Assembly: GCA_036726225.1 (NCBI GenBank)
Contig: DAIMCS010000001.1
Location: forward strand, 397,856 to 461,855
Source of the DNA: Patescibacteria group bacterium
GTDB taxonomy: Bacteria; Patescibacteriota; Doudnabacteria; UBA920
Length of the DNA stretch: 64,000 nucleotides
Reading direction: 5' to 3'
Part shown: positions 41,204 to 63,639 of the stretch, in pieces
How positions within the stretch are numbered: the stretch's first letter is position 1
Layout of the letters: each line of letters opens with the position of its first letter
Notes under the pieces: generated by a model
Told to the model about the DNA's origin: nothing
Database searches by the model: none
The model's input: the letters and a program-made list of their open reading frames with translations, nothing else
Program-made: the position numbers and the translations under genes

Positions 41204-41232
41204 TTGACAAATTTAGGGAGTTATATTATAAT
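41204..41232 (+). promoter_or_regulatory. consensus sigma70 promoter TTGACA-17-TATAAT about 545 nt upstream of the surface-protein gene
   Basis: Perfect hexamers, 17-nt spacer. Confidence 0.6.
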
Positions 41233-41776
41233 GTATTAAATTTGGAATTAAATCTTTTAGATATCCCCAAATGGGCTCAATATACATTAAAACTGTGAAT
41301 AAAAGTCAGGGAGAGTTTGCAAGCTAAAATAAGCTTTATTTAAAGCTAAAATTGTAAACTTTCCCTGGCTTTTTGCATAATAAAAACCGCAAAAAGGCTA
41401 AATTAAGACAGGTTGTAACATTCTACAAAAACCTCCGTCTTGCCTGTGGACAGTGAGAATAATTTCAGTTTTGGTTGTTTTGGAAGCACACTTCTCTTTA
41501 TTTATTGAACCTTATGGCTTAAGGCGAGCCATACGGGGTATTAAAATGCCTGGTCGATCTTATGGCGTTAATCCAACGCACCATTTATTGGTGTATGGGT
41601 AAAGTTCTACGTTATAAGGACTCAATAAACATTGTTTACCTGCAATTTTTGAGGTCTCTAGAACCCTAAAAACGGAAGGTAGATAATGAAATTAATTAAA
41701 TTTTTTTCCGCAAATTTATTTTTGATTATCTCAATTGAATAATCAAACTTAGCGGAAAAATGGAGTATTATTAAAA

Positions 41777-44700
41777 ATGCAAAATTCTTTAGCAAAGAAA
41801 TTCTTTGCTGTAGGATCTGCGGTGGCAATGACTTTGTCCTTAGCCGCGCCGTTTGCAGCGCAAGCTGCAGCGCACGCTGCCGGGACTAACGTTTCCACCT
41901 CCGACGGTACAGTCTGGTTTATTACACCAGAAGGTACCCGCAGAGCCTACACTTCTGCCGGCGCTTTCCTTTCCTACGGCTTCAATTCTTGGAGCCAGGT
42001 GGTAGCTGCCAATGCAGATGACCTGAGCTTGCCTGCCGGATCGTTCATTCCTCCTCAGGACGGAACGGTTTTCTGCGCAACTGCCACAAAAGGCAGTGAC
42101 GTAGCAGGTGAATGCTCTTTGGTAACTGCCGGTATGAAAGCCGCTTTTACTTCAGCTGCTGTGTTTGCCGGTCTTGGCTTTAGCTTCGCTAACGCCGAGT
42201 ACGGTGATTCTTCTTTCTTAAATAAGACTGTAGACATCAACAGCTCAACCGAAGCCCACAAAACCGGCGTGCTTGTTAACAATAACGGCACTGTCCAGTT
42301 AGTTGGCGCTACCGGTTTGCTTGGTATTCCAAGCTTAGACGTCTTTAACACCTGGGGCTATTCCTTTGCCAATGTCGTTCCGGCTAACGCCGCCGACAAG
42401 GCAATGACCCAGACCGGTGTTATGCAAGCCAGAACACCTGGCCAATTAAACCCGGTATGGACAGTTGGAACTCAGCCTCCGCCTCCGGTTGGTTCGGTCA
42501 CGGTCTCTTTGGCCTCCGACAACCCGGCTTCTGGCAGCATTGTTGCCAGTTCTTCAGCTGTAACTTTGGCTAAATTCAACTTCTCCGGAAGCGGAACAGT
42601 CAGCCAAATCCAGCTTAAGAGAATTGGTGTCTCTGCAGACTCTGTTCTTTCTAACGTTTACCTCTACGACGGAGCTATGCGCTTAACTGATGCAGCTTCT
42701 GTCGGCGGTAGCAGCCTAATTAGCTTCAATACCCCAGGCGGTATTTTTACAGTTTCAGGCAGCAAGACCATTTCCGTGGTCGCTGAAATTGCAGGCACAG
42801 CCACTTCCGGCCAAACTGTAGGCGTTCAGCTTACCGGTTTTGCCGTAGCTGGTTATAGCTTGGGCAGCGCCAGTGTTTCCGGTAACTTACACACCGTTGC
42901 TTCAGTCAGCGATCTCGCTACTGTTGACTTCGGTACTGTTACCCCGACTGGCCAGACTTTGGACGCTGCTGCGGGCTTAGAAGTCTTCCGCAGTTCAGTA
43001 AGCATTGGCACCCGCGATGTAACCTTGTCCCGTTTGGCAGTTCGCCAAATTGGATCAGTCAACTACAGCGATATCAAGAACTTAGTCTTGAAGGTAGACG
43101 GTACAACTCTTGGTTCAGTAGCCGGTTTGGATGTAAATGGCTACGCCATGTTCTCCTTCTCACCTACTACTCTTAAGAGCGGCACTCGCATTATCACCAT
43201 TTTGGGTGACATTGTTGGCGGCGCTACCAGGACTTTCCAGTTCCAAATTCGCAACAAGGTTGATGTCGACTTTACTGACACTAACTACAACGTAGTGGTT
43301 TCTCCTGTTGACACCTTCCCTGTAGGTTCAGGTTCTGCTAACACCATTAGAGAAGGTAGCCTTATTATTCAAAAAGCTACCGACACTCCGTCTGGCAACG
43401 TAACCGATGGTGCTACCAATGTAAAATTGGCCAAGTTCACAGCTAACGCTTATGGTGAACCTATGAAGATCGAAACCTTAACTGCTGCTGCAAGCTCTTC
43501 TGACACCAGCGTTACTTCGCTCCGAAATGGTAAAATTATGATCAACGGGGTTCAGTATGGTTCTACAGCCACTTTGGCCCAGTGTCTTGCATGTACCACC
43601 ACCGGTGGTACCTCTTACACTTTGAACTATACTGTGCAGCCGGGTACTGCGGTTACTATCGAAGTTTATGCCGATATGTATGACAATGACATTGGTGGAA
43701 ACAACCTTTCCAACGGCGACACCGTTACTGCTTACTTAATTGTTGGTTCTAACAACGTCCAAAAGATGACCTCTTTGGGCTATGTCAACGTTCCGTCTTC
43801 CGCAGTTTCGGGTAACCCGATTACCAACGTAACCGGCAGCGTAACCTTTGCCAAGAACCAAACTTACTCTAACCACGCTATTCCTCTCCCACAAACTGGC
43901 TACAAGATTGGTGCCTTCACCTTAGTCGGTAGCACCTCGGAAGATGTGACTATCTCGAGCATCTCAGTTCGCGATGTTTCATCCACCAGCTTGACCAGCT
44001 TGTACAACATAAAAGTATTGGTTAATGGCAGCATATTTGGAGCTCAGGCTAGCAGCATCTCCGTTGGAGGTACTTCTACCTTCTCCAGTACTTTGAACCT
44101 TGCCCAAGGAATGACTGTTCCGGTCGAAGTTTATGCTGACATAAACTTACCAACAGCCGGCTATGCCGCCGACACCTTCGGTGCCCAGGTTTCGATTTCC
44201 GGTACAGCTGTTAATTCCAGCGCTTCCATTGCTGCTTCTGCAGCCGGTCAGACTTTGACCATTGGTAGCGCCACCTTAACTGCGGCTCAAGATCCGTCTA
44301 CTCCGGTTGCTGCCATTACGGCCGGCAATCAGACCAAGACTGCTGCTGCCTTTAAGTGGACTTCAGCTAACGACCAATTTACGATTTCTGAACTCGTAAT
44401 TAGTGTCGCGGCCGTCACCACTGTTCAAAATGTCATAATCAAGGATGGCAGCAACGTCATTGCTACTCAGCCAGGCGCTGCTTCTACCACCTTCAGCAAT
44501 TTGAGCATTTCAGTCCCTGCCAATGCCACCAAGATCTTAACTGTAGAATTACAGTTGGGCGGTGTGGGAACCGGCGCGGGTACTTCTGGTGAAAACGTCT
44601 TCGTCACCTTGCACAGCTACAAGAAAGCTCCGGCTTCATCCGGCACAGTCTCTACCACAACTGTTGGTAACATTTCGGGTAATGCCTTGTATGTTTACAA

Positions 44701-45217
44701 AGCTATTCCTACTATTACCACGGTTGCCTTACCCACCAGCATTCCGGTTGCCGGCACCAACACTTTGGCTAAGTTCACCCTTTCATCCGGTGGAACTGGC
44801 ACAATTGCTTGGAGCAAGATGATCTTCGCAATTAGCACATCTACAGGTGTTACCTTAAGCAGTCCTACAGTTTGGGATGCTGACACTAACACTCAGATTG
44901 CTGGTAACGCGACTTTCGCAACAACCAACGTAACCTTCTACACTACCAATGAACAACAAATTACCGGAGCCAAGACTTATGTCTTGAAAGGTACTTTGGG
45001 TGGAACAATTGGTACAGATGGTAACTACATTAGCACGTCTATAGCACAGCCTTCGAGCTTTGTTGCTCCGGCGATTGCTTCTGCTGCTACTGTCAGCTCT
45101 GCTACCTTCGTGTGGTCTGATGTCTCGGCCCAAAGCCATAGCTTCTCGACCGCCGACTGGAACAATGACTACTTAGTCAAGAATCTGCCAACAGATTCCC
45201 AGAGCTTGATTCAGTAA
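41777..45217 (+). CDS. giant (1146 aa) secreted Thr/Ser/Gly/Val/Ala-rich beta-repeat surface (S-layer-like / adhesin-like) protein
   Basis: Signal peptide ending AAQAAAHA; low-complexity beta-rich composition; strong RBS. Confidence 0.7.
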   Translation: MQNSLAKKFFAVGSAVAMTLSLAAPFAAQAAAHAAGTNVSTSDGTVWFITPEGTRRAYTSAGAFLSYGFNSWSQVVAANADDLSLPAGSFIPPQDGTVFCATATKGSDVAGECSLVTAGMKAAFTSAAVFAGLGFSFANAEYGDSSFLNKTVDINSSTEAHKTGVLVNNNGTVQLVGATGLLGIPSLDVFNTWGYSFANVVPANAADKAMTQTGVMQARTPGQLNPVWTVGTQPPPPVGSVTVSLASDNPASGSIVASSSAVTLAKFNFSGSGTVSQIQLKRIGVSADSVLSNVYLYDGAMRLTDAASVGGSSLISFNTPGGIFTVSGSKTISVVAEIAGTATSGQTVGVQLTGFAVAGYSLGSASVSGNLHTVASVSDLATVDFGTVTPTGQTLDAAAGLEVFRSSVSIGTRDVTLSRLAVRQIGSVNYSDIKNLVLKVDGTTLGSVAGLDVNGYAMFSFSPTTLKSGTRIITILGDIVGGATRTFQFQIRNKVDVDFTDTNYNVVVSPVDTFPVGSGSANTIREGSLIIQKATDTPSGNVTDGATNVKLAKFTANAYGEPMKIETLTAAASSSDTSVTSLRNGKIMINGVQYGSTATLAQCLACTTTGGTSYTLNYTVQPGTAVTIEVYADMYDNDIGGNNLSNGDTVTAYLIVGSNNVQKMTSLGYVNVPSSAVSGNPITNVTGSVTFAKNQTYSNHAIPLPQTGYKIGAFTLVGSTSEDVTISSISVRDVSSTSLTSLYNIKVLVNGSIFGAQASSISVGGTSTFSSTLNLAQGMTVPVEVYADINLPTAGYAADTFGAQVSISGTAVNSSASIAASAAGQTLTIGSATLTAAQDPSTPVAAITAGNQTKTAAAFKWTSANDQFTISELVISVAAVTTVQNVIIKDGSNVIATQPGAASTTFSNLSISVPANATKILTVELQLGGVGTGAGTSGENVFVTLHSYKKAPASSGTVSTTTVGNISGNALYVYKAIPTITTVALPTSIPVAGTNTLAKFTLSSGGTGTIAWSKMIFAISTSTGVTLSSPTVWDADTNTQIAGNATFATTNVTFYTTNEQQITGAKTYVLKGTLGGTIGTDGNYISTSIAQPSSFVAPAIASAATVSSATFVWSDVSAQSHSFSTADWNNDYLVKNLPTDSQSLIQ

Positions 45218-45388
45218 AGTCTTTTAAGACTTAACTAACGTTCCTAAAACGGTCAATTTAGGCAAAACCCCGCTTCCAAAAGAGGCGGGGTTTTGTTAGC
45301 TAAAGAGAGCAAGTGTCCGGCTTTAGCCGGGTATTTTAGTATCTGCCGGACTCTTGAAAAAAGCCTGTTTTTTTAGTATATTTACTGT

Positions 45389-46078
45389 ATGTCTAAAAAA
45401 ATTGTCTTAGTTTTTTGTGTCATTATAGCCCTGGCTTTTACAGGCTATTTTTGGCAAAAAAATAAAAAAAACACCAACCAAAATAATGGCAAGGTTTTGG
45501 CAAATAAAGAAAGGAATTTAACGGCTGAACAAAAGCAAATTTATTTAGACCGTATACAAAAAGCAGAGGCGGATTTGCGCGGTTTAAACCCTACGGATGC
45601 AAATTATCATATTTCACAAATTAATGACCATATGTATTTAGGGCAACAATATTTTGGGTTGGGCCAAATGGAAAAATCTAAACAGGAATTTTTGACAGTT
45701 TTGCAAATTGAACCAAATTACGAGCCGGCTTTTGCCGCACTTGCCCTGACTTACAGTGATGCCGGCGAACTTCCAGAAGCCCAGTTGGCTTTAGAGTCAG
45801 CCATCAAAAGTAATTCTAAAAATTATAATATTTGGTTGCAGTATATTGGTGTTAGGCAGGCTATGGGCGCAAGCAATGAGGAGCTGGGCCAGCTTTACGA
45901 GGATGCGCTTTTGGCTACGTCCAGGTATACAGACATACTTACAAAATACGCCCAATTTGAGGAAAGCGTTGGTAATATAGCCGAGGCAATTGCTTTGTGG
46001 GAAGAAGCCTTAAAAAATTACCCTGAAAACGCGCAATTTTACAACACTGAAATTAACCGTTTGAAAAAGTTGAAATAA
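45389..46078 (+). CDS. membrane-anchored TPR-repeat protein
   Basis: N-terminal TM plus TPR-like helices. Confidence 0.6.
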   Translation: MSKKIVLVFCVIIALAFTGYFWQKNKKNTNQNNGKVLANKERNLTAEQKQIYLDRIQKAEADLRGLNPTDANYHISQINDHMYLGQQYFGLGQMEKSKQEFLTVLQIEPNYEPAFAALALTYSDAGELPEAQLALESAIKSNSKNYNIWLQYIGVRQAMGASNEELGQLYEDALLATSRYTDILTKYAQFEESVGNIAEAIALWEEALKNYPENAQFYNTEINRLKKLK

Positions 46079-46081
46079 GTT

Positions 46082-48304
46082 ATGACAAACTCTTTTGACA
46101 AAAAAATTTGGTATGTGTTTTTTGCCTTAGTTTTAGCTTCGCTCTTAACCCCGTTTTGGGTATTTTCCCAATTGTTGTTTCCGTTTATTACCAGCAAAGC
46201 TCTGTATTTCCGTTTTATGGTTGAGGCCGCGTTGCCTTTTTATATTTACTTAATGCTTGTTTCCCCGAAGCTCCGCCCCAAAATAAAACAACCTTTGAAT
46301 TTGGCGGTTTTAATTTTTGTGTTAATTAATATTGTTACTTCTTTTTCCGGCGTGAATGTAGACAGGAGCCTGTGGGGGACATTTGAACGCATGGGCGGGG
46401 TTTGGTATCTGCTCCATTTAGGCCTACTGTTTTTTTATGTCCAGGCTATTGGCCAGGCAGGGGGAAAGTATTTGAAGATTTTTTTGCAAAGCTTTATAGG
46501 CGTGGCAGTGGCTGTGAGTTTCAACGGGCTTTTAGGCAAAATTGGCATTGTCACTTTCTTTCCTGACCCTTCTTTGCCTGCCCGTGTTTCTTCTACTTTT
46601 GGCAACCCCATATTTTTCGCGAGCTTCCTTATTATACCTTTGTTTTTGGCCGTGTATTTTGCCGTGCAGGAAGAGAGGCGGGGGATGAAAATTATTTATT
46701 GGATAGCCGCCGCTTTACAGCTTTTGGGAATTTATTTTTCCGGTACGCGCGGAGCAGTTGTCGGTTTAATTTTGGGCCTGTTTGCAGCTTTGGTCGTTTA
46801 TGTCATCCTGACAAAAAAATCTAAATTCAGGCAGTACAGCTTAGTCATTTTGGGAGTATTGTTAATTGTTGCCGGAGGCCTGTACTTTAACCAAAAAAAA
46901 TTATCCCCCAGCTCTACACTTTACCGCATTGTCCATTTACGGGACAGCAATACTGAAGCTAGATTAATTCAGTGGCGTATGGCTTTGCAGGGCGTGAAAA
47001 AGCATTTATTGTTGGGTGTTGGCCCGGAAAATTATTATGTGGTATTCGATGAGTTCTACAATCCTGAAATGTACAAGTACGACCCTTCCTGGTTTGACAA
47101 GCCCCATAATTATCAGCTGGAAATTTTAGTTACAAATGGCATACTAGGACTGCTTGCTTACATCGCTATGTTCGTATTTAGTTTATACGCTTTATGGAAA
47201 GCGTATAAAGCTAATTTGTTGGGCCTGCTTGAAGGATGCGTACTTTTTGCCGGGGTGGTTGCTTACCAGGTACAAAATTTAACCGTTTTTGATACGGTTT
47301 CGGCAAGCGTGGCATTTTATGCTTTTATGGGTTTTGCCGCGTTCCTCTGGTACGAAAGTTATGCCCCTTCAAAACAAGAAACACAAAATAAATTAAGCGC
47401 CGGCCCGGCTCCCAAGGTTATTTTTGCCGTGCTTTGTCTGCTGCTGATATTTGTGGAATACGTTTCCAACTTTGCTTCATATCAGGCTTCCAAGCGCGTA
47501 AACTTGGGTTATTTTTACACATCTTACGACCCAAAAACAGCGGGGAATTATTTTACAAAGGCTTTAGAGGTTAAATATAATTTGGACAAGCGGGACACGG
47601 CAAATTATTATTCTGACTTTACAGCTAGGCTGGTCAATAATGCGGATGCCAAGGTGGATGATAAGTTTAAGCTTGAACATATGCAAAAAGCCCGCGAGAA
47701 CCAAAAAGCTATTGCGGAGAAAGTTCAAAATGACCCTTTGTTATGGATGAGACTGGCTATAGGCGAAATGAACCTGGCGCTTTTGCAGGGTCAAAATTTT
47801 GACCCTGCAAAAGAAGCCATTAGTAAGGCTGTTAATTTGGCTCCCAACAGAGTAGAGTTATTGCAATTATGGGTGCAGTGTTATGGTCTTTTGAAAGATT
47901 GGAAAAATTTGGTAATTGTTGCAGAAAAAATTGTTGAACTAAACCCCGGAAAACCTGACTTGCGCTGGCAATTAGCCATGGGATATTTTTTAAATGGGCA
48001 GCTGGAAGAGGCGGTTTTAGCAGGAGACGTCGCTGTTGCCCAGGGTTTTAAGTTTAATCAATTGCAGCAATTCGCCTGGTATATTCAGTATTATGAGGCA
48101 AAGAAGGACTGGCAAAAAGTAATTCCGCTTCTAGAGCAAGCTGTAACCTTGGAGTCCAACGAGATTGGTTTATACATAGATCTGGCAAAAGCTTACGCCA
48201 AAATAGGCGACAAAGAGCACGCTATTCTTTTAGCTCGGCAAGTCCAGCAGTCAGACCCCTCCCAGAGGGCAGCTATGGAAGAATTTATCAACTCACTCAA
48301 ATAG
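46082..48304 (+). CDS. Wzy_C-family (O-antigen ligase / PglL-PilO-like) polytopic membrane protein with C-terminal TPR domain, paralogue 1
   Basis: Wzy_C hallmark loop …FSGTRGAVVGL…, 10+ TM helices, C-terminal TPR array. Confidence 0.7.
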   Translation: MTNSFDKKIWYVFFALVLASLLTPFWVFSQLLFPFITSKALYFRFMVEAALPFYIYLMLVSPKLRPKIKQPLNLAVLIFVLINIVTSFSGVNVDRSLWGTFERMGGVWYLLHLGLLFFYVQAIGQAGGKYLKIFLQSFIGVAVAVSFNGLLGKIGIVTFFPDPSLPARVSSTFGNPIFFASFLIIPLFLAVYFAVQEERRGMKIIYWIAAALQLLGIYFSGTRGAVVGLILGLFAALVVYVILTKKSKFRQYSLVILGVLLIVAGGLYFNQKKLSPSSTLYRIVHLRDSNTEARLIQWRMALQGVKKHLLLGVGPENYYVVFDEFYNPEMYKYDPSWFDKPHNYQLEILVTNGILGLLAYIAMFVFSLYALWKAYKANLLGLLEGCVLFAGVVAYQVQNLTVFDTVSASVAFYAFMGFAAFLWYESYAPSKQETQNKLSAGPAPKVIFAVLCLLLIFVEYVSNFASYQASKRVNLGYFYTSYDPKTAGNYFTKALEVKYNLDKRDTANYYSDFTARLVNNADAKVDDKFKLEHMQKARENQKAIAEKVQNDPLLWMRLAIGEMNLALLQGQNFDPAKEAISKAVNLAPNRVELLQLWVQCYGLLKDWKNLVIVAEKIVELNPGKPDLRWQLAMGYFLNGQLEEAVLAGDVAVAQGFKFNQLQQFAWYIQYYEAKKDWQKVIPLLEQAVTLESNEIGLYIDLAKAYAKIGDKEHAILLARQVQQSDPSQRAAMEEFINSLK

Positions 48305-48314
48305 AAAGCAAATT

Positions 48315-49883
48315 ATGAAGATAAGGGAATTTTTTACAAAGAAGAGAATTATCTGGTCCGCAATAATTTTGTTGGTATTGTTTGTAATTGGTTATTTTAT
48401 TTTCAGGCCAAAAGATAACTCCGGCAATATACAGACTGAAATAGTTAAGAAACAAGATTTGAAGTCAACTGTCCTTGCAACCGGACAGGTGGTTTCGGGC
48501 ACAGATTTAAATTTAAGTTTTAAAACCAGCGGTTTTGTGCAAAGCGTAAAAGTTACGGAAGGCAGCAAAGTTAAGACCGGCGATGTGCTGGCAACTTTAG
48601 ACCAAAAAGATGCGTTAGCGAGTTTAACTTCGGCAAGAGGCGCACTGGCCCAGGCGCAGGCCAACTACAATAAAGTTTTAGCCGGCGCTTCTAACGAGGA
48701 AATTATAGTGGCTCAAAAAGCTGTTGACGCGGCCCAGGTGACTTTAGATACCGCCAAGGTCAATTTAAAAAATACCCAAAGCCAGCAGGAAACCGCTGTT
48801 AGTAACGCTTATTCTGCCCTTTTGAATTCTACTTTGGAAGCAGTGCCTAGCGCCGGGAATGCCGGGACCGGAATTGCTACTGTAAGCGGAACCTATACTG
48901 GAGCAGAGCAGGGTACTTATACCCTATCTCTCTACATTTCAGGTAATGGCATGATGTTCCAGCTTAGCGGTTTAGAAACTTCAAGCGGTGAATACAAAAG
49001 TTTTCCGGTACCTTTAGGAAGCAGAGGCTTATTTATAGAATTTTCGGGGACCTCCTATGCAAACGATCAATGGGTAGTGAAAATCCCAAACACCAGCGCC
49101 AGCACTTACGTTGCTAACTATAATGCCTACCAGTCATCCCTTAAAACCAGGCAGTCTTCAGTGGATGCCGCCCAGGCGCAGCTCAACAGCGCGCAGGTGG
49201 CTTTAGACCAGGCTATAGCAGCCTTAAACCTAAAAAAAGCCCAGGCCAGGCCTGCAGATTTACAAGTGGCCCAAGCCCAGGTACTCTCGGCTCAAGGACA
49301 GGTCCAGGCTGCGCAGTCGAACCTGGAAAATACAATTATGCGCGCGCCAACGGGCGGCACAATAACCAAAGTAGATGCTAAAGTGGGGCAGCAAGCCACA
49401 GCTATGCAGGCCTTAATAGTTTTGCAGGACGTTGGGAATTTGCATGTGGAGGCAAATATTAGCGAGGCTAATATTTCTTCCATAATTTCAGAGCAGCAGG
49501 TGGAAGTAACTTTCGACGCTTTAGGCGTGGACAGGAAATTTATAGCCAAAGTCCAAACCATAGACCCGGCCTCCACCGTAGTTTCCGGCGTGGTGAATTA
49601 TAAAGTTAAGGTTTCCTTGGAAAAATTGGAGCAAATTAAACCCGGTATGACCGCTAACTTAAATATTTTAACCGGTGAAAAAAGCGGCGTGTTAGCCGTG
49701 CCGCAGCGCGCGGTAATAAGCCGCGACGGAAAAAAGTTTGTCCGTGTAATTACAGACACTAAAAAGAAAGCCTACACCGAAGCAGAAGTTACCACCGGTA
49801 TGGAAGCGGACGGGGGGCTAGTGGAAATTGTAAGCGGAGTTTCAGAGGGCGCTGAGGTTGTGACCTTCATAAGATCTAACTAA
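48315..49883 (+). CDS. HlyD/RND-adaptor family periplasmic membrane-fusion protein (no partner transporter in window)
   Basis: N-terminal TM, biotinyl-lipoyl-like hairpin, long coiled coil, beta-barrel IMRAPTGGTITKV. Confidence 0.7.
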   Translation: MKIREFFTKKRIIWSAIILLVLFVIGYFIFRPKDNSGNIQTEIVKKQDLKSTVLATGQVVSGTDLNLSFKTSGFVQSVKVTEGSKVKTGDVLATLDQKDALASLTSARGALAQAQANYNKVLAGASNEEIIVAQKAVDAAQVTLDTAKVNLKNTQSQQETAVSNAYSALLNSTLEAVPSAGNAGTGIATVSGTYTGAEQGTYTLSLYISGNGMMFQLSGLETSSGEYKSFPVPLGSRGLFIEFSGTSYANDQWVVKIPNTSASTYVANYNAYQSSLKTRQSSVDAAQAQLNSAQVALDQAIAALNLKKAQARPADLQVAQAQVLSAQGQVQAAQSNLENTIMRAPTGGTITKVDAKVGQQATAMQALIVLQDVGNLHVEANISEANISSIISEQQVEVTFDALGVDRKFIAKVQTIDPASTVVSGVVNYKVKVSLEKLEQIKPGMTANLNILTGEKSGVLAVPQRAVISRDGKKFVRVITDTKKKAYTEAEVTTGMEADGGLVEIVSGVSEGAEVVTFIRSN

Positions 49884-49895
49884 ATTCATAGGATT

Positions 49896-51695: not shown

Positions 51696-51731
51696 GATAA
51701 AATTGGGGGCATAGCATATTCCTGACCAAGT

Positions 51732-55048: not shown

Positions 55049-55206
55049 TTGATGATTTAAAAATAGAATATTTAAAGATAGAAAATTGCGTAATCTTTAA
55101 ATCTTTAAATTTTCAATCTTTCAATTATTGTTGATTGATTTATTGCCGTATTTATGGTAATTTATCTTAGTATAAAGTATAACGAATAAAGTATAAAGGC
55201 CTAAAA

Positions 55207-56223
55207 ATGTCAGATAAAAAAATTGCATTAGTTACGGGTATCACCGGCCAGGACGGTTCTTACCTGGCGGAATTACTACTCTCTAAGGGCTACGAAGTCC
55301 ACGGCATTGTGCGCCGCGCCAGTGTTTTTAACACCGAAAGAATAGACCATATTTACCAGGATCCGCACGAGTCCCACAGGCGGCTGTTTTTACATTACGG
55401 CGACTTGTCCGACGCTTCCAATTTAAATCAGCTGCTTAAAACCATTAAGCCGGACGAAATTTACAACCTTGGCGCGCAAAGCCACGTAAAGGTGAGTTTT
55501 GAAATTCCGGAATACACGGCCAACGTGGACGCGCTTGGGACTTTAAGATTGCTGGACGCAATTCGGGAAAGCGGCATCCCAACCAAACTTTACCAGGCCG
55601 GGTCTTCGGAAATGTTTGGGGATGTTTTAGAAACCCCGCAAAAAGAAACTACGCCTTTTAACCCCGCCTCTCCATACGGCGCTTCCAAAGTTTTTGGTTT
55701 TCACATTTGTAAAAATTACCGTATTGCTTACAATATGTTTATTTGTAACGGCATTTTGTTTAACCACGAATCTCCCAGGCGCGGCAAAACTTTTGTCACC
55801 CGTAAAATTACCACGGGCATTGCCGCAATTTTAGCCGGCCGGCAGGAAAAAATATATTTGGGAAATTTAGACGCCAAAAGGGACTGGGGTTTTGCTCCGG
55901 AATATGTTGAGGCTATGTGGAAAATGCTGCAGCAGGAAAAACCGGACGACTATGTTATTGCAACAGCTCAGACCCACTCCATTCGCGAATTTTTAGACGA
56001 AGCTTTTAAGCTGGTAAATATTGACAATTGGGAAAAATACATTGGCGTAGACCCGGCATACTACCGCCCCCAGGAAGTTAATTTGCTTTTGGGAGACCCT
56101 TCCAAAGCCAAAAAAAACTTAGGTTGGGAGCCAAAAGTTAAATTTAAAGAGCTTGTCAAAATAATGCTTGAGGCAGACCTAAAAGAAGCCGGCCTTGATC
56201 CGGTAAGATATTTAAAGATTTAA
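55207..56223 (+). CDS. gmd: GDP-mannose 4,6-dehydratase
   Basis: [28 protein letters not shown]…, YGASK. Confidence 0.9.
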
Positions 56224-56286
56224 AAAAAGAAAAATAAAAAGATTAATAATTTTTGAATTTTAAATTTTTCTATTTTTAAATTATTT

Positions 56287-57063
56287 ATGAAATTATTAAG
56301 TTTAAACATTTGGGGCGCAAGCCAAGGTAAAATATTTTTTGACTATATTGCACAACAATCGGTAAATACCGATATTTTTTGTTTTCAGGAAGTTTTTGAA
56401 GGGCCAAAGGAGTTTAAATTCGATCCTCTAGCAGACGGCACTCATCCGCGCTTGTTTACGGAATTGTCAGAAGCTTTAAAAGATTTTGTAGGCTTTTATG
56501 CGGTTACTTCTAAACACCATAGTTTGAAAACCGCTGTGCAAAATTTGTCCCACGGATTGGCTATTTTTGTGCATAAAAAACATGTGGTCACAGAGCAAAA
56601 TTTTAGTTTAATCCACGGTTCTCAAGCCCAAGAGGTAAAGTTAGACTTTACTAATTTGCCTTGTATACTTCAGTACGCACATGTTGGGAATTTAAATGTA
56701 TTTAATTACCACGGCATTCCTATGCCCGGGGACAAGTTAGATACCAAGGAGAGAATTGCGGCCTCACAAAAAATTTTGGAAGTTATGGCAAAAACATCCG
56801 GCCCTAAAATTTTATGCGGGGATTTTAATTTAATGCCTGACACAGAGAGCGTGCGTATGTTTGGGGAGGCAGGATTTAAGAATTTAATTAAAGATTTTAA
56901 AATTACCAACACCCGCAACGAAATTTCGTGGAATATGTACAGCAATAAGCAGTCTTTTGCGGACTTTACTTTTATTTCGCCCGAAATAAAAGTAAAGTCC
57001 TTTGAAGTGCCGTATAATTTAGTTTCCGATCATTTACCAATGGTAATGCAATTTCAAATTTAA
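56287..57063 (+). CDS. endonuclease/exonuclease/phosphatase (EEP) family protein
   Basis: LSLNIWG N-terminus, C-terminal SDHLP motif. Confidence 0.65.
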   Translation: MKLLSLNIWGASQGKIFFDYIAQQSVNTDIFCFQEVFEGPKEFKFDPLADGTHPRLFTELSEALKDFVGFYAVTSKHHSLKTAVQNLSHGLAIFVHKKHVVTEQNFSLIHGSQAQEVKLDFTNLPCILQYAHVGNLNVFNYHGIPMPGDKLDTKERIAASQKILEVMAKTSGPKILCGDFNLMPDTESVRMFGEAGFKNLIKDFKITNTRNEISWNMYSNKQSFADFTFISPEIKVKSFEVPYNLVSDHLPMVMQFQI

Positions 57064-57091
57064 AGATTAAAAAATAGAAAATTTAAACATT

Positions 57092-57484
57092 ATGAAATAC
57101 CAACAATTTGAAGATTTGCCAGTTTGGCAGCAATCGAGGCAGTTTGTTAACCAGGTTTATGGATTAATAGAACATAATCAAAAATTCAGCCGCGATTTTT
57201 CTTTGGTAGATCAGTTAAAACGAGCAGCTTTTTCTATTATGCTCAATATAGCTGAAGGATTTGAACGCGGAAGCAATAAGGAATTTGCAAATTTTATTAA
57301 TATAGCCAAAGGTTCCGCCGGGGAAGTCCGTTCAATCCTATATATACTTTTAGATCGTCGGTATGTTTCAGCAGATTTTTTTGAGGCCTCAAAAAAAGAA
57401 ATTTTGGAAATTTCTTCCAGTCTTTCTAATTTTAGAAAATATTTAGTAAACCATAATGAGTATAAAAAACTCCTGCCCCGATAA
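57092..57484 (+). CDS. four-helix-bundle protein (TIGR02436 / 23S-IVS family), second copy
   Basis: LPVWQQSRQFVNQVYGL…MLNIAEGFERGS…AKGSAGEVRS. Confidence 0.75.
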   Translation: MKYQQFEDLPVWQQSRQFVNQVYGLIEHNQKFSRDFSLVDQLKRAAFSIMLNIAEGFERGSNKEFANFINIAKGSAGEVRSILYILLDRRYVSADFFEASKKEILEISSSLSNFRKYLVNHNEYKKLLPR

Positions 57485-57513
57485 TCTTTAAATTTTAAAT
57501 CTTTTATTTTTAA

Positions 57514-58572
57514 ATGCTCAAACTACTATTTTGCGGACTTAAATACGAATATGGTAAGGCTTTTGCAGGGCTTTCTTTTGAGCATCAAAATTTTTTTGAG
57601 GTCTTAAGTCAAATACAGGGCATTGAAGCGGAAATGTTTGCGGTAGATGAAGTAATGCAGTCAGTTGGCCGGGACGAGATGAATAAAAAACTTATCCAAA
57701 AGGTGGAAGCGGACAAGCCCGATCTGCTGTTTTGTTTTCTTTTTACCGAAGAGCTAAAAAAAGAAACTATAGAGCATATTACAAAAAAAACTTCCACTAA
57801 AACTTTTAATTGGTTTGCCGATGACCATTGGCGTTTTCCCATCTATTCAAAATATTGGGCGCCATTGTTTACCGCTGTTTCCACTACCGACTCTCAGGCA
57901 GTTGAAAAATATAAAACAGTTGGCGTAGACGCTATCAAAACCCAGTGGGCGGCAAATGTAAACTTATATAAACCTAGTCAGTATACTGTAGACAGTAAAC
58001 AGTATGTAGATATTACTTTTGTGGGGAAAAATTATGGCAACAGAGCCGAATACATACAAACGCTAAAAGATAATCACATTTCTGCAGAAGGATATGGCAG
58101 TGGCTGGGAGAAGGGAAGGGTTGATTTTACCGATATGCTTGAAATTTTTAGTAATTCCAAAGTAAATTTAAATTTTACGGAAAGTTATTTTAACTGGCCG
58201 AAACAGCTAGTAAAGTTATTTGTAAAAAAAGAATTTGGCAGGTATTACTTTAATGCTCATCATCTGGTATCAAATTTCCAGTCCTTGCTGGGAGCCAAGC
58301 GCAAACAAATAAAAGGCAGGATTTTTGAAGTTCCTGCTTGTGGTGGTTTTCTTATTACAGGGGATGCAGATAATTTACGTGACTATTATGTTGAGGACAA
58401 AGAAATTGTAATTTTTAAAGACAAAAATGACTTAGTCGAAAAATGTAAATATTACTTAGCTCACGACAGTGAGAGGCAAGCTATAGCTAAGGCCGGATAT
58501 GAACGGACAATAAAAGAGCACACTTACGAGCAAAGGTTTAAGGAAATTTTTAAGACCTTAGATCTAATGTAA
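57514..58572 (+). CDS. CgeB-like / DUF3880-type glycosyltransferase
   Basis: C-terminal GT-B-like half …FEVPACGGFLITGDADNLRDYY…. Confidence 0.55.
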   Translation: MLKLLFCGLKYEYGKAFAGLSFEHQNFFEVLSQIQGIEAEMFAVDEVMQSVGRDEMNKKLIQKVEADKPDLLFCFLFTEELKKETIEHITKKTSTKTFNWFADDHWRFPIYSKYWAPLFTAVSTTDSQAVEKYKTVGVDAIKTQWAANVNLYKPSQYTVDSKQYVDITFVGKNYGNRAEYIQTLKDNHISAEGYGSGWEKGRVDFTDMLEIFSNSKVNLNFTESYFNWPKQLVKLFVKKEFGRYYFNAHHLVSNFQSLLGAKRKQIKGRIFEVPACGGFLITGDADNLRDYYVEDKEIVIFKDKNDLVEKCKYYLAHDSERQAIAKAGYERTIKEHTYEQRFKEIFKTLDLM

Positions 58573-58641
58573 AAAAACAACCGCAGACAACCCAAGGTAG
58601 TGCATTCCTTGTTTGTCTGCGGTTTTTGGTTTGTACGGTTG

Positions 58642-59466
58642 TTAGTTTTGGGCGACTATGTCGCCATCATAGGGGATTGTAATATTTCCCCCAAAGCCGG
58701 ACCTGCGGCAATCATCGTAGATTGCTTCGTTCGGATCCTGGCCGCTGAAGTGAAATAAAACCAAATGCCGCACTCCGGCTTCTTTGGCCATTTCGCCTGC
58801 TTGCCTTGGTGTCATATGTCCGTATTTGGCAGCTGAATTGAAATCGTCAATCCTTGCAGAAATTTCGCAGAGAAACAAGTCCGCGTCTTTTGCAAGTTCG
58901 ACAAGTGTAGGACAACGAGCAGTATCGCCGGAGTAGACAAACACTTCTCCGCCCGGCATTTCCAGCCTCGATCCGTTGCAATCCGTCTTTCCCTGGCTAT
59001 GGAAGACAGGCAACATCGTAAGTTCAGCCTTGCCAATTCGGTTTTCTTGTTCGGTATGGAAAGCGACTTCAATATTGCCGGGAAAGTTTCCGTCCAACTG
59101 TGGGAGCTGGAGTTTTACAATCTGGCGAAACGCCGCCTCCACACTCGGATGGCAGAAAACATCAAGCTTGAAATTTTGCCCCTTAAAACGCGGATCCCAG
59201 TCCGGTGTGGCCGAGAGAGCTTGAATGAGCTCTGCTGCACAGAAGTGGTCGGGGTGCACATGAGAAATAAAAACTTTCCTTATGTCACCGATGCTCATGA
59301 AGCGCTGACCGAGTCTGTAAGTGCTCCCGCCCGGATACTCAATAAGCAGATGCTTTTGGGAGTTATTTTCATGCCAGGTCAGCAAAAATCCCGGTGGACT
59401 TCGGTCAGTTTTAATTTCAGGTAAGTTGTGAACGCAAATCCCGGTCCCGAAGATGTTCAGAATCAT
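58642..59466 (-). CDS. metallo-beta-lactamase-fold hydrolase
   Basis: HxHxDH motif ISHVHPDHF; start taken at internal ATG (MILNIFGTG). Confidence 0.65.
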   Translation of the reverse strand: MILNIFGTGICVHNLPEIKTDRSPPGFLLTWHENNSQKHLLIEYPGGSTYRLGQRFMSIGDIRKVFISHVHPDHFCAAELIQALSATPDWDPRFKGQNFKLDVFCHPSVEAAFRQIVKLQLPQLDGNFPGNIEVAFHTEQENRIGKAELTMLPVFHSQGKTDCNGSRLEMPGGEVFVYSGDTARCPTLVELAKDADLFLCEISARIDDFNSAAKYGHMTPRQAGEMAKEAGVRHLVLFHFSGQDPNEAIYDDCRRSGFGGNITIPYDGDIVAQN

Positions 59467-59563
59467 TGTTGCCTCCTTAGAAAAGAACCAGATTAAATAT
59501 TTTACTGGTTTTAATGGCTTTTGTAAATAGTCAAAAAATGCTATTATCAATGGGTAAAAGCTT

Positions 59564-60514
59564 ATGTTTAATTTAAAAAATGCAAAAATTTTACTGACCG
59601 GCGGGCATGGATTTTTGGGAAAGAAAGTTTTCCAGGAATTGTTGAAGGCGGGGGCAAAGGCTGAACATATATCTGTTCCCAGGTCTAGAGATTTAGATTT
59701 GCGTGTAGCCGAAAGCTGCGCCAGGGCCGTTAAAAATAAAGACTTAATTATTCATTTGGCGGCAAATGTCGGCGGCATTGGTTATAATAACGAAAACCCG
59801 GGCCCGATTTTTTACGACAACGCCGCTATGGGCGTGAATTTAATAGAAGCCTCCCGTAAAGCCAAAGTAAAAAAATTTGTGCAAATTGGCACGGTTTGCG
59901 CGTACCCCAAGTTCCCGCCCCACATTCCGTTTAGGGAGGACGACTTATGGTCAGGTTATCCGGAAGAAACCAACGCGCCTTACGGCATTGCAAAAAAAAT
60001 GCTGCTGACAATGCTGGAAGCTTACCGCCGGCAGTACAAAATGAACGGGATTTTTTTATTGCCCGTAAATTTGTACGGGCCCGGCGACAACTTTAATCCC
60101 AAGCAGTCCCACGTAATCCCTGCACTCATTAAAAAATTTGTAGACTCCAAACAAAAAAATCAAAAACAAGTTATAGTTTGGGGGACCGGCAGGCCATCTA
60201 GGGAATTTTTGTATGTAGACGACGCTGCCCGGGCAATAGTTTTAGCAGTATTAAAATACAACAAAGCTGAGCCGGTTAATTTGGGCAGCAGTTACGAAAT
60301 AAAAATAAAAGATCTGGTCACAATTATTGCCAGGCTCACCGGTTTTAAAGGTAAAATTGTCTGGGACAAAACCAAGCCCGACGGGCAGCCAAGAAGAAAA
60401 CTAGACGTAAAAAGAGCGAAAAAAGAATTTGGGTTCGTTTCTCAAGTTAAATTTGAAGATGGTTTAAAGAAGACAATTGCTTGGTACAGGGCTAATAAGC
60501 TTAAATTAAAATAA
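59564..60514 (+). CDS. fcl: GDP-L-fucose synthase (GDP-4-keto-6-deoxymannose 3,5-epimerase/4-reductase)
   Basis: NLYGPGDNFNPKQSHVIPALI, VWGTGRPSREFLYVDD, KPDGQPRRKLDV. Confidence 0.85.
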   Translation: MFNLKNAKILLTGGHGFLGKKVFQELLKAGAKAEHISVPRSRDLDLRVAESCARAVKNKDLIIHLAANVGGIGYNNENPGPIFYDNAAMGVNLIEASRKAKVKKFVQIGTVCAYPKFPPHIPFREDDLWSGYPEETNAPYGIAKKMLLTMLEAYRRQYKMNGIFLLPVNLYGPGDNFNPKQSHVIPALIKKFVDSKQKNQKQVIVWGTGRPSREFLYVDDAARAIVLAVLKYNKAEPVNLGSSYEIKIKDLVTIIARLTGFKGKIVWDKTKPDGQPRRKLDVKRAKKEFGFVSQVKFEDGLKKTIAWYRANKLKLK

Positions 60515-61140
60515 TGAAAATTTTGGAAATAAAAACTTTGGTTTTACCGGAAGTGAAGATTATTGAATTTGAACGTTTTGCCGATGAACGCGGTTATTTT
60601 ACTGAAACTTACCGTGCAGAAGACCTGGCCGCTTTAGATTTTTTAAAAGGTATTAAATTTCAGCAGCAAAACGAAAGCTTTTCTAAAGCCAATGTAATGC
60701 GCGGTTTACATTTTCAGTGGAGCCCGCCTATGGGTAAAATGGTGCGGACAGTTTTTGGCCATATGGTGGATATGGTTATGGACATTCGCCAAGGCTCGCC
60801 TAACTTTGGCAAAATAATTTTATATAACATGCCCTCACACCCGGATCAAAATCGGAGCCAATGGATTTGGGTTCCGCCCGGGTTTGCCCACGGTAATTTT
60901 TTTACAGAGCCAACTTTAATTCAATATTTCTGCACCGAAGCCTACAAGCCTGAAAGTGAGGCAGGCATATCTCCATTATCGGCCGACCTTAACTGGTCGT
61001 TATGTGATCTTGAGCTAAACGAACTTTTTACTCAGCTTAAAGCCCGGGCCACCATTAGCGAGAAAGATAAAAATAATATGAGCTTAAGCCAGTGGAAGCA
61101 AGACAGCCGTAGCGAGAATTTTATATATGGCAGAGAATAA
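60514..61140 (+). CDS. dTDP-4-dehydrorhamnose 3,5-epimerase-like cupin (RmlC family)
   Basis: RmlC-family cupin core motifs. Confidence 0.7.
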   Translation: MKILEIKTLVLPEVKIIEFERFADERGYFTETYRAEDLAALDFLKGIKFQQQNESFSKANVMRGLHFQWSPPMGKMVRTVFGHMVDMVMDIRQGSPNFGKIILYNMPSHPDQNRSQWIWVPPGFAHGNFFTEPTLIQYFCTEAYKPESEAGISPLSADLNWSLCDLELNELFTQLKARATISEKDKNNMSLSQWKQDSRSENFIYGRE

Positions 61141-61999
61141 AAAAAAAGTTTTAGTTTTTGGGAATGGGCAACTGGGATACGATTTAATTCGAGTTTTAAA
61201 AAATGACTTCGAAGTCGTGGCTTTGGATCGTCAGGCAGTTGATGTAACTGACAAGCAAGCAGTCATCTCGGCCGTAAAGCAGGCAAATCCCGTTTTTGTA
61301 ATTAATGCCACGGCTTATAATAAAGTTGAGCAGGCTGAAAGTGAAAGGGACTTAGCTTTTCAAATTAACTCGCAAGCTGTCTGTAATTTAGGAGAAGCGG
61401 CAAAATTAGTTGATGCAATTTTTGTTCACGTTAGCACAGACTACGTTTTTGACGGAAGCCGTGATTTTTTTAAGGAGTCTGACGAACCTAACCCTTTAAA
61501 TGCATACGGCGCTTCTAAGCTGGAAGGGGAGAGCAAACTTAAGGACATTGGCGGAAAATTCTATTTAATCAGAACCAGTTCAGTTTTTGGGGTAAAACAA
61601 TCAGGGCAGAAAATGAATTTTGTAGATAAAATTATATCCCTGGCAAAAGAAGGAAAGCCTTTAAAGGTGGTAGCTGACCAAATTATGAGTCCAACCTATT
61701 CCTTAGACTTAGCCAATAAAATAAAAGAGATAATGGAAAAATTGCCTGCTTTTGGAATTTATCATATAACCAACCAGGGAAGCTGCTCATGGTATGAATT
61801 TGCCAAAGAAATTTTAGAAAATATGGGTTTGAAGGCTAATCTTGATAAAATAACCGCAGCAGAAAGCGGGAGCAAAGTTATTCGTCCAAAAATTAGCGTT
61901 TTAAAAAACACAGCATTGCTAAGCGCAGGTATAAACCTGTTACCATCATGGCAGGATGCAGTGGGCAGGTATTTGAAAGAAAAATATGGACCCCGTTAG
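61127..61999 (+). CDS. dTDP-4-dehydrorhamnose reductase-like (RmlD family)
   Basis: VLVFGNGQLG Rossmann N-terminus, YGASK. Confidence 0.7.
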   Translation: MAENKKKVLVFGNGQLGYDLIRVLKNDFEVVALDRQAVDVTDKQAVISAVKQANPVFVINATAYNKVEQAESERDLAFQINSQAVCNLGEAAKLVDAIFVHVSTDYVFDGSRDFFKESDEPNPLNAYGASKLEGESKLKDIGGKFYLIRTSSVFGVKQSGQKMNFVDKIISLAKEGKPLKVVADQIMSPTYSLDLANKIKEIMEKLPAFGIYHITNQGSCSWYEFAKEILENMGLKANLDKITAAESGSKVIRPKISVLKNTALLSAGINLLPSWQDAVGRYLKEKYGPR

Positions 62000-62088
62000 A
62001 AGTCGCTCACTATCAAGATAACAGGAAAATTATAATAATATTTTTAAAACATTGAAAAGTTTAATATTTAAAATTAACTTCTAACGGG

Positions 62089-63639
62089 GTGGATAACCAA
62101 TCTCTCTCCTACAAAACTTTAAAGAATTCAGCCTGGGGCTTTTTGGGTTATGTTATACCCATCCTTTTTTCTATTGTTGTAACTCCGGTTATCATCCACA
62201 AGCTGGGTATTGTAGATTATGGTGTTTTTGTTCTGGCTAATACCATAATTGCATTTTTGAGTTTGCTGGATTTTGGCTTTACTATTTCACTAATTAAGTA
62301 CGCTTCGGAAAATTATGCCAAGGGTGAAATTTCAGAGCTCAACAGCCTGCTGAACGCCGGACACAGTTTATATTTAGCAATAGGCGTAGTTGGTTTTGTG
62401 GTTTTTTATTTGGTGGGAACTTTTTTTCTGCCAATATTTAAAATTTCCGGTTCCAGCGTGTCTCATATTGGAATAGTTTTTTTGCTCGCGGGGCTTACAT
62501 TTTTTTTCTCCAGCCTGCTTTCTGTTTATCAGGTTGTTCCCCATGCCCTGCAGCGTTTTGACGTTACCACCAAACTTACCACTTCTCAGTTAATAATTGG
62601 GCAAATAGCCACCCTTATTGCCGTTTTGCTTGGCTATAAGTTGAAAGTAATGTTTTTAATAAGCTTAGTTACTACAATCGGCCTGTTTTTAGGATATAAA
62701 TGGTTTTGCAAAAGGTTGCTCCCGCAGGCTGAATTTGGTTTTTCTTTAAACCGGCAAGCTCTAAAAAAGATTTTTTACTTTGGCGGTTTTGCGGCCTTAA
62801 ATAATATTTCCTCCAGCGCATTAATACAGCTGGATCGTTTGATTATTCCGATTCTCTTAGGGCCGGCCCAGTTAAGCTATTACAGTGTTCCGGGCGGAGC
62901 GGTTACCAAAATTCCCGGATTTACCAGCAGTTTTTCAGGAATCTTTTTCCCGCTGTCCAGCAGTATGCAATCTTTGGGGGAAATGGACAGGCTAAAAGTT
63001 GTTTATATAAAAGCTTTTAGAAATTTAAGCGTACTGGCTGCGGCCTTAACTTTTGCTTTGGTTATTTTTGCACGCAAGATTTTGTATTTTTGGATAGGCC
63101 CGGAGTTTGCGGAAAATAGCACGGAAATTTTAGTTATCTTGGCGCTAACGCATTATGTTTTGGCCCTTTACGCGCCGTTGACTAATTTTTTGCTGGGCTT
63201 AGGCAAACTTAAAATCTTAGCTTTCAATTCCGTGGTCTTGGCCATAATTAACCTGATCCTGCTTGTAATTTTAATTCCGAAAATGGGAATTATTGGCGCA
63301 GCTTGGGCGTATTTAATTAGCGTGCTGCCTATGGTGTTTATTTTTTATTGGACAGAAAAAAAAGTTTTATTTTTAAGCGGCATTACCAAATTTTATTTGA
63401 GGCTTTACGCAAAACTAATTTGCACGGCAGCCGTTTCTTTTGTAATTGTAAAATTCCTGCTTTTGCCGCTTACGGTTAGCATCCAAACCCTGGTAGTATT
63501 TGGACCGCTATCAATTTTAATATTTTTGTCAGTTTACAAATTATTGGGTTTTGTTGACCAAGAAGACTGGGATTTGGCTAAAGGGTTTGCCTCGCAAGCT
63601 TTAGTGAGGTTGGGTTTGAAGAATGCTAAGGTAGATTGA
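62089..63639 (+). CDS. MOP-superfamily oligosaccharide flippase (Wzx-like)
   Basis: About 14 TM helices, typical Wzx size and topology. Confidence 0.65.
   Translation: MDNQSLSYKTLKNSAWGFLGYVIPILFSIVVTPVIIHKLGIVDYGVFVLANTIIAFLSLLDFGFTISLIKYASENYAKGEISELNSLLNAGHSLYLAIGVVGFVVFYLVGTFFLPIFKISGSSVSHIGIVFLLAGLTFFFSSLLSVYQVVPHALQRFDVTTKLTTSQLIIGQIATLIAVLLGYKLKVMFLISLVTTIGLFLGYKWFCKRLLPQAEFGFSLNRQALKKIFYFGGFAALNNISSSALIQLDRLIIPILLGPAQLSYYSVPGGAVTKIPGFTSSFSGIFFPLSSSMQSLGEMDRLKVVYIKAFRNLSVLAAALTFALVIFARKILYFWIGPEFAENSTEILVILALTHYVLALYAPLTNFLLGLGKLKILAFNSVVLAIINLILLVILIPKMGIIGAAWAYLISVLPMVFIFYWTEKKVLFLSGITKFYLRLYAKLICTAAVSFVIVKFLLLPLTVSIQTLVVFGPLSILIFLSVYKLLGFVDQEDWDLAKGFASQALVRLGLKNAKVD

Follow-up and report, generated by a model that had tools for sequence, protein, structure and literature searches.

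A 64,000-nucleotide (nt) stretch of the genome of an uncultured, ultra-small bacterium (Doudnabacteria, Patescibacteria; contig DAIMCS010000001.1), referred to here as the window, contains a locus that we read, with a probability of roughly one half, as encoding the main, S-layer-type surface protein of the cell together with the machinery that would O-glycosylate it. The surface protein, here called BIG, has 1146 residues and is encoded at 41777-45217 (+). Downstream of it are genes for a small tetratricopeptide repeat (TPR) protein, for two paralogous membrane enzymes in which a Wzy_C domain is joined to a C-terminal TPR array (Wzy_C-TPR), for a HlyD-type pump adaptor and a subtilase, and for the assembly and export of a glycan. 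A glycosylation locus of this kind had been proposed in an earlier note on this DNA. All coordinates are positions in the window. The open reading frames (ORFs), domains and gene gaps listed in that note are real: the ORF coordinates agree exactly with ours, and PF04932, TIGR01730, Peptidase_S8, gmd and others were matched.

The two Wzy_C-TPR proteins are candidate O-oligosaccharyltransferases (O-OTases), enzymes that move a lipid-linked glycan onto Ser or Thr (or Tyr) of a protein. Paralogue A (46082-48304, +; 740 residues) and paralogue B (51732-53981, +; 749 residues) match PF04932 with 78.2 and 81.6 bits, against a gathering cut-off of 31.7, and both carry a TPR array of about 270 residues at the C-terminus. 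The AlphaFold2 model of paralogue A has a pLDDT of 92.5, and a Foldseek search with this model finds WaaL of Cupriavidus metallidurans (7tpg_B, E 1.9e-06, TM-score 0.61 on the target). WaaL 7TPG is the sole solved membrane protein that matches these enzymes, by sequence (E 7.7e-07) as well as by fold. Three residues, R223, R294 and H342, are invariant in an alignment of 37 sequences (both paralogues and 35 homologues). When WaaL 7TPG is aligned, they fall on its conserved motifs GTRGAVV, RL..W and HN. The loss of catalytic loop residues, named in the earlier note as one of the findings that would refute the proposal, is thus not what is found. By position and motif only, the three residues correspond to R215, R288 and H338 of E. 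coli WaaL and to R224, R298 and H349 of N. meningitidis PglL, a set that is essential in WaaL and conserved in PglL (PMC3643930).

Compared with WaaL, the Wzy_C-TPR proteins have two additions. One is a 13th hydrophobic helix (residues 438-467), which follows a WaaL-like core of 12 transmembrane (TM) helices, and the other is the TPR array. The work on 7TPG is said to have placed both termini of WaaL in the cytoplasm; with one further TM helix, the TPR array should therefore be extracytoplasmic, on the same side of the membrane as the catalytic loop. The TM cores of the two paralogues are 49% identical and their TPR domains only 28%, which fits different partners or acceptors. A further difference lies in the host. 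Cells of the Candidate Phyla Radiation (CPR) are taken to have a monoderm-type envelope without lipopolysaccharide, and from this the Doudnabacteria host should have none.

A TPR array that guides a glycosyltransferase to its protein acceptor is known from other systems. The eukaryotic TMTC O-mannosyltransferases are TPR-guided protein glycosyltransferases, and the TPR part of the paralogue A model matches the protein-glycosylating enzymes OGT and SPY, in addition to designed TPR proteins. TfpW of P. aeruginosa has a C-terminal TPR in the periplasm (bioRxiv 10.1101/2020.04.19.049825). In TMTC, TfpW and OGT, as here, the TPR array attached to the catalytic domain presumably binds the protein acceptor, but their catalytic folds are GT-C or GT-B, whereas that of Wzy_C-TPR is of the WaaL type.

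The closest known systems to the locus are the slg clusters of Geobacillus and Paenibacillus. In G. stearothermophilus NRS 2004/3a the TPR protein WsaA is encoded directly upstream of the Wzy_C O-OTase WsaB, while WsfB of P. alvei CCM 2051T is a Wzy_C protein with C-terminal TPR (PMC2943079). The Doudnabacteria locus has both arrangements. Its TPRs are fused to the enzyme as in WsfB, and paralogue A is preceded by a membrane-anchored TPR protein of 229 residues (45389-46078, +; N-terminal TM 1-24), which is WsaA-like by position. The combination had been thought to have no textbook counterpart, but its core is matched by WsaA/WsaB and WsfB. The slg clusters contain rmlABCD or other rml genes, and the S-layer gene, which is monocistronic, lies not far from them (sgsE in G. 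stearothermophilus; PMC2943079). The Doudnabacteria locus likewise has rml and other nucleotide-sugar genes, genes for glycosyltransferases and for a putative exporter of lipid-linked glycan, and a nearby surface-protein gene with its own promoter and terminator. O-OTase genes usually adjoin the gene for their acceptor (PMC3643930), and both Wzy_C-TPR genes of the window lie no more than 7 kb downstream of BIG.

There are also clear differences from the slg clusters. The Doudnabacteria locus has a CPR host and two diverged Wzy_C-TPR paralogues. BIG belongs to an unnamed family with what is probably a new anchoring module, not SLH, and its gene has a conserved structured leader. The exporter is a Wzx-type flippase, where slg has Wzm/Wzt. 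An initiating transferase of the WsaP/WsfP type (Bac_transf) was not found in the window or in the next 3 kb, although there is one in a related locus (L028 in our numbering of related loci). Finally, genes for a pump adaptor and a protease lie in between the glycosylation genes. We found no paper that describes this locus, or in which an S-layer protein of Doudnabacteria or the genes for its glycosylation are named.

BIG has no match in Pfam or NCBIfam. A Sec signal peptide of typical form (residues 1-30, MQNSLAKKFFAVGSAVAMTLSLAAPFAAQA/AAH, cleavage AQA/A) stands at its N-terminus, and it is predicted to be secreted, in line with the surface location that had been suggested for it. The signal peptide is followed by a module of three repeats of about 60 residues each (approximately residues 35-226), a Pro linker (229-237) and some seven immunoglobulin (Ig)-like β-sandwich domains; the AlphaFold2 model has a mean pLDDT of 84. 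The mature protein is acidic and Cys-poor, having a mass of 113 kDa, a pI of 5.0, 25% Ser plus Thr and only four Cys. A scan of one genome per species gave 93 relatives, of which about 45 are full-length, with identities of 32-64%. Across the family both the signal peptide and the C-terminal DYLVKNLPTDSQSL are conserved. BIG also has the second-lowest effective number of codons among 22 genes of the window (45.7), with G-ending codons avoided. These biased codons, the signal peptide, the perfect promoter, the long leader and the dedicated terminator (the last three described below) serve as proxies for secretion and abundance, and make BIG a candidate for the S-layer or main surface protein of the Doudnabacteria cell.

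The three-repeat module (41879-42454 in BIG) is about 190 residues long, contains two conserved Cys and corresponds to no Pfam family. It occurs a second time in the locus, as the C-terminal region of the subtilase (50985-51545, residues 364-550), where the two copies are related with an hhalign probability of 98.8% (E 6.8e-17). It is also common to many other large secreted Doudnabacteria proteins, at either end of the chain (loci L057-L088). In a set of BIG homologues (P0208, P0226) its place is taken by PG_binding_1. From this exchange we infer that the module fixes its carriers to the cell wall, and it probably represents a new family of wall-binding domains.

The consensus promoter and the leader of about 540 nt reported earlier are both present: a perfect sigma-70-type TTGACA-17-TATAAT promoter (12/12 matches) lies at 41204-41232 (+), and 26 of 28 related loci have a promoter of this form 500-830 nt 5' of the start codon of BIG. 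An intrinsic terminator, AAAACCCCGCUUC-CAAAA-GAGGCGGGGUUUUGUU, follows the gene at 45264-45297 (+); it was overlooked by a simple terminator scan and found by folding. An equivalent GC-rich hairpin with a T-run is present 3' of BIG in 40 of 42 loci. With its own conserved promoter and its own strong terminator, BIG is, as far as such signals tell, a separate transcription unit.

A second promoter, TTGAAA-17-TATATT, follows at 45354-45382 (+). Only 6 nt separate its -10 box from the start codon (ATG) of the TPR gene, and no Shine-Dalgarno (SD) sequence precedes that gene (45354-45391). The arrangement cTTGAAA-17-TATAGT-6 nt-ATG is kept in at least seven related loci. The downstream operon (TPR, Wzy_C-TPR A, HlyD, subtilase, Wzy_C-TPR B) thus appears to begin as a leaderless mRNA. 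The earlier note had described the whole locus as one co-directional run. This needs correction on two counts, since the terminator and second promoter separate BIG from the rest, and since the GT4 and MBL-fold genes further downstream are on the minus strand. Its description of close gene spacing from 45389 to 53981 is accurate, the gaps there being 3, 10, 12 and 36 nt.

The leader (41233-41776, +) contains conserved blocks in an alignment of 25 loci and is found at the same position in L007, L008 and L010-L054. Rfam, searched at both gathering and E-value thresholds, returned no family for it, only tRNAs and chance hairpin matches. The first element is a long hairpin at 41301-41375 (+), AAAAGUCAGGGA...UCCCUGGCUUUUUG, which is terminator- or attenuator-like and ends in an invariant CCUGGCUUUUU. 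In the RNAalifold prediction it has 15 pairs, and compensatory changes are seen in 9 of these; its fold z-score is -4.4. In 2.05 Mb of fetched loci this motif is nearly confined to the region 300-720 nt upstream of BIG genes. A hairpin with a CUCUAGAG loop follows at about 41645-41673 (+), with arms that covary as judged by eye. The third element is a hairpin close to the SD sequence (41703-41765, +). Its outer stem pairs UUUUUCCGC (41703-41711) with GCGGAAAAA (41752-41760), and a near-invariant 25-mer, TTGATT(A/G)TCTCAATTGAATAATCAA (41722-41746), forms an apical hairpin inside this stem. The SD sequence, GGAG, is at 41762-41765, and the covarying U-rich/A-rich stem terminates at it. The outer stem was missed by RNAalifold on the MAFFT alignment, in which the arms are out of register, and was recovered by per-sequence duplex folding: the flanking arms covary, and the duplexfold z-score is below -1.5 in 17 of 23 leaders. 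The leader might act as an attenuator, stabilise the mRNA or bind a regulator. A TTATCCACA-like motif in the leader was considered as a DnaA box, but is better described as a small covarying hairpin (CCC/GGG versus CCA/UGG, by eye).

Directly upstream of the BIG promoter is a tRNA-Pro(TGG) gene (41089-41162, -), and a promoter-like site for it, TTGTCA-18-TAGAAT (41210-41181), overlaps the -35 box of BIG on the opposite strand. The protein-coding gene divergent from BIG (39955-40770, -) encodes 271 residues with an N-terminal membrane anchor and without family match; a homologue (41% identity) is found near a module-bearing protein in L077.

The arrangement of surface protein, Wzy_C-TPR and GT4 genes is not peculiar to the window. 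The proteins of the window were compared by BLAST with the ORFs of 88 loci. The recurring order is FBA, LOG and TAL, then, after an interval of about 1 kb, BIG, TPR, Wzy_C-TPR A, an optional HlyD, Wzy_C-TPR B, GT4 (on the minus strand), gmd and Glyco_trans_1_2. For 38 BIG loci the sequence extends 6 kb or more downstream, and 25 of them contain a Wzy_C-TPR gene, against none of 32 control loci, which together span 500 kb of the same genome set and are centred on other module-carrying proteins. In the same 38 loci a TPR gene follows BIG in 16 by BLAST, to which divergent TPR ORFs in L042 and L084 can be added, and GT4 is within the flank in 18. Paralogue B is the more widespread type and always adjoins the minus-strand GT4 gene, while paralogue A invariably has the small TPR gene in front of it. 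Even where BIG is only 32-33% identical (L042, L084), the order BIG, TPR, Wzy, HlyD, Wzy, GT4(-) persists. The more distant loci L026 and L028 retain BIG, TPR and HlyD. The genes that come next encode a Wzx flippase and a GT11-like enzyme in L026, and GT2, GT4 and a WbaP-type Bac_transf in L028. Genes for glycan precursors and export recur in related loci and, given the Bac_transf of L028 and the Wzx of L026, the associated glycan pathway is by its gene content lipid-linked.

The mechanism that we propose is as follows. BIG would be made from a very strong promoter by way of the long structured leader, exported by Sec and held at the wall through its N-terminal three-repeat module. GT4 and Glyco_trans_1_2 would assemble a deoxyhexose-containing oligosaccharide on a polyprenyl-phosphate carrier, using donors of the GDP-fucose type (gmd, fcl) and the dTDP-rhamnose type (rmlC, rmlD). 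The Wzx-type protein would then flip the lipid-linked glycan across the membrane. Outside, the two WaaL-fold Wzy_C enzymes would transfer it to the exported BIG, with their external TPR arrays and the separate membrane-anchored TPR protein binding the acceptor.

Several observations weigh against this reading and are collected in this and the next three paragraphs. The genes for FBA, LOG and TAL are housekeeping genes, and are as syntenic upstream of BIG as the glycosylation genes are downstream. Part of the synteny signal is therefore inherited gene order, and the adjacency is weaker evidence than the counts imply. Moreover, 13 of the 38 BIG loci, mainly those of distant homologues, have no Wzy_C-TPR gene within 10 kb. 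These findings raise the alternative that gene order has been inherited without any functional coupling, BIG being a wall-anchored adhesin or other surface protein, and the downstream genes a general envelope, exopolysaccharide or lipid-glycan cluster. The separate transcription of BIG and the TPR operon could be taken the same way, but known S-layer genes are likewise transcribed apart from their adjacent slg clusters (PMC2943079). Nor does inherited order readily account for an association that endures down to 32-37% BIG identity despite many insertions and rearrangements in the intervening slots, or for the complete lack of Wzy_C-TPR genes in the control loci of the same genomes. We consider this alternative unlikely.

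The structure of BIG itself does not help to separate an S-layer protein from an adhesin. Its matches in the PDB are generic arrays of Ig-like domains, which include both the Nitrosopumilus S-layer protein and the adhesin PrgB, and the fold was rejected as a discriminator as it fits either. BIG contains no known S-layer anchoring domain (SLH or CWB2), and residues 31-231 have no match in Pfam or NCBIfam.

The enzymes are open to a second interpretation. Simple sequence comparison cannot separate WaaL-type ligases from protein O-OTases (PMC3643930), Wzy_C covers polymerases as well as ligases, and the NCBIfam matches of the Wzy_C-TPR proteins include TuaE and IctB, at scores below threshold. 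The glycan genes might therefore make a secondary cell-wall polymer that the Wzy_C-TPR proteins polymerise or ligate to the wall, and to which BIG and the subtilase bind through their shared module, BIG itself being unglycosylated. There are parallels for this: the polysaccharide locus of C. difficile adjoins slpA, and SLH domains bind a pyruvylated polymer. The occurrence of the module on many secreted proteins is what would be expected of an anchor for a wall polymer, and TPR arrays also act as scaffolds in polysaccharide export (PMC2943079). The Wzx flippase of the locus and the priming transferase of related loci fit a wall polymer and protein glycosylation alike. Against a wall polymer, both paralogues keep the Arg/Arg/His set of the ligase/OTase type and a WaaL-like fold, the exchange of the module for PG_binding_1 suggests binding to peptidoglycan rather than to a special polymer, and a fused or adjacent TPR is a trait of the S-layer O-OTases WsfB and WsaA/WsaB. 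On balance we are doubtful of the wall-polymer explanation, while giving it serious weight.

Returning to glycosylation of BIG, a relationship to PglL and PilO (TfpO) had been suggested for the enzymes, and it holds in part. The Wzy_C domain, the positions of the Arg/Arg/His residues and the location of the gene near that of a likely acceptor all agree. On the other hand, neither paralogue has a match to PglL_A (PF15864) at E <= 0.01, and the acceptor proposed here is a 113-kDa multi-Ig protein rather than a pilin. A pilin acceptor, as for PilO/TfpO, was considered and rejected: by inspection, the small ORFs near Wzy_C-TPR genes in related loci encode small membrane proteins or toxin-antitoxin-like pairs. 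The final point concerns the start of the pathway. When all window ORFs of at least 120 residues were scanned against Pfam, no priming transferase (Bac_transf or WecA-type) was found, as the earlier note had remarked. Outside the window, where that note advised looking, there is none in the 3 kb past the flippase; the related locus L028, as noted above, has a WbaP-type enzyme.

The HlyD protein (48315-49883, +; 522 residues) matches RND_mfp (TIGR01730) with 170 bits against a cut-off of 95, and has barrel domains of the YknX type. It had been described as an orphan. This is accurate for the window, which encodes no ABC partner, but the protein does not look like a dedicated orphan. Homologues of 55-65% identity are numerous across Patescibacteria, and orthologues that are 58-63% identical occur in an operon of HlyD, ABC ATPase and two MacB_PCD/FtsX genes in the L007 and L008 genomes and in a Sungbacteria genome. 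In a distance tree, BIG-linked and MacB-linked copies are intermixed at about 60% identity. The copies in the tree therefore look like one orthologous pump adaptor, and HlyD probably belongs, as adaptor, to a MacB/YknXYZ-type exporter encoded elsewhere, its gene having moved next to BIG. It differs from MacA/YknX in the position of its gene, between two Wzy_C-TPR genes. The operon of HlyD, ABC ATPase and two MacB_PCD/FtsX genes is widespread in Patescibacteria (L090, L091, L092, L093-L141), in many cases with a MazE-like gene and an N_methyl (pilin-like) gene ahead of it. A scan of metagenome contigs with the MacB permease profile listed at least 51 loci; among those listed there is none from Ga0137465_1000001, the 496-kb JGI contig on which the proteins of the window are also found.

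The subtilase (Peptidase_S8; 49896-51695, +; 599 residues, secreted; 157 bits in Pfam) has the VLDDG, HGT and GTSFAAP motifs with the catalytic Asp, His and Ser. Together with the shared module, these suggest that it is probably a wall-anchored protease, possibly one that acts on BIG. The secreted protease was correctly recognised in the earlier note as part of the locus; its gene is an insertion, which adjoins the locus in this species only (L001-L006).

It is worth asking whether these two proteins form a dedicated device for export and maturation of BIG, the adaptor providing a conduit through the wall and the protease cleaving the BIG precursor. The C. difficile protease Cwp84 cleaves the SlpA precursor in this way, and by analogy the subtilase possibly acts on or processes BIG. 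In at least 10 species HlyD is found in the slot that follows BIG or the TPR gene, and it stays with BIG and TPR where no Wzy_C-TPR gene is present within 10 kb (L026, L028). Among the matches listed, 27 MacB-type operons have 5 kb of sequence upstream, and about 11 of these (about 40%) have no adjacent adaptor. The protease, for its part, bears the module of BIG. However, BIG has a normal Sec signal peptide, which also led us to reject type I secretion through HlyD as unlikely, the adaptor appears to be an ordinary orthologue of pump adaptors, and the protease is confined to a single species. A dedicated device is, in our view, very unlikely.

CPR bacteria are mostly uncultured and have reduced genomes, and many are attached to hosts, so that the choice of partners depends on the cell surface. 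Some Patescibacteria have been observed to carry S-layers (PMC13293708). If BIG is indeed a glycosylated S-layer protein, the locus would offer a concrete target, a 113-kDa protein and a set of sugar genes, for the groundwater and soil samples in which this genome recurs. The three-repeat module would mark surface proteins across the group, the two TPR-fused WaaL-type enzymes would be new and possibly of use in glyco-engineering, and the leader would be a new structured RNA. More tentatively, an S-layer protein of a CPR bacterium (Doudnabacteria) and its dedicated glycosylation machinery could here be identified in molecular terms for the first time: a new protein family with a new wall module used across the secretome, two diverged WaaL-fold enzymes with external, acceptor-selecting TPR, a recruited pump adaptor, and a multi-hairpin leader, not in Rfam, that controls expression. 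If our reading is wrong, the locus would be an ordinary envelope polysaccharide cluster that by chance lies beside a surface-protein gene.

The remaining genes of the locus follow paralogue B. Convergent with it is the GT4 glycosyltransferase (53993-55048, -; Pfam), and then come gmd (55207-56223, +; an equivalog match of 531 bits), Glyco_trans_1_2 (57514-58572, +; Pfam), an fcl-like epimerase/reductase (59564-60514, +) and an rmlC-like gene (60514-61140, +), both named from best matches with scores under the cut-off, rmlD (61127-61999, +; score over the cut-off) and the Wzx-type flippase (Polysacc_synt_3; 62089-63639, +; Pfam). Between gmd and Glyco_trans_1_2 are two genes named from family matches, one of the endonuclease/exonuclease/phosphatase (EEP) family (56287-57063) and one for a 23S-rRNA-IVP four-helix bundle (57092-57484). 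Both recur within the glycan clusters of several species (L008, L018, L023, L024, L052), which suggests that they are members of the pathway and not passengers. The MBL-fold gene (58642-59550, -; family match) has sub-threshold matches to an Apyc1-like cyclic-nucleotide-degrading phosphodiesterase and to RNase Z.

Some related loci have other genes in this region. In L007 and L009 a Peptidase_S11/beta-lactamase-type gene adjoins the Wzy_C-TPR genes in place of the subtilase. In some loci Wzy_C-TPR is accompanied by tandem small multi-TM proteins of about 100-117 residues that start MTKVQKIWLxVFLAMFLVPEILW (L008, 12323-14008; L030, 16056-16376; L037, 15919-16227), and proteins of 930-960 residues with an LCAT/lipase domain are also found at such loci.

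Elsewhere the window consists of housekeeping genes, such as those for FtsZ, GroEL, RelA, ComEC and class I FBA. It also encodes a T4SS-pilin-domain protein of 377 residues (3621-4754, -), NrdR and, after it, a class II-like ribonucleotide reductase that contains a TSCPD domain (7575-10814), and a tRNA-Gly(TCC) (27720-27793, -). The region from 24.5 to 26.5 kb contains short ORFs only.

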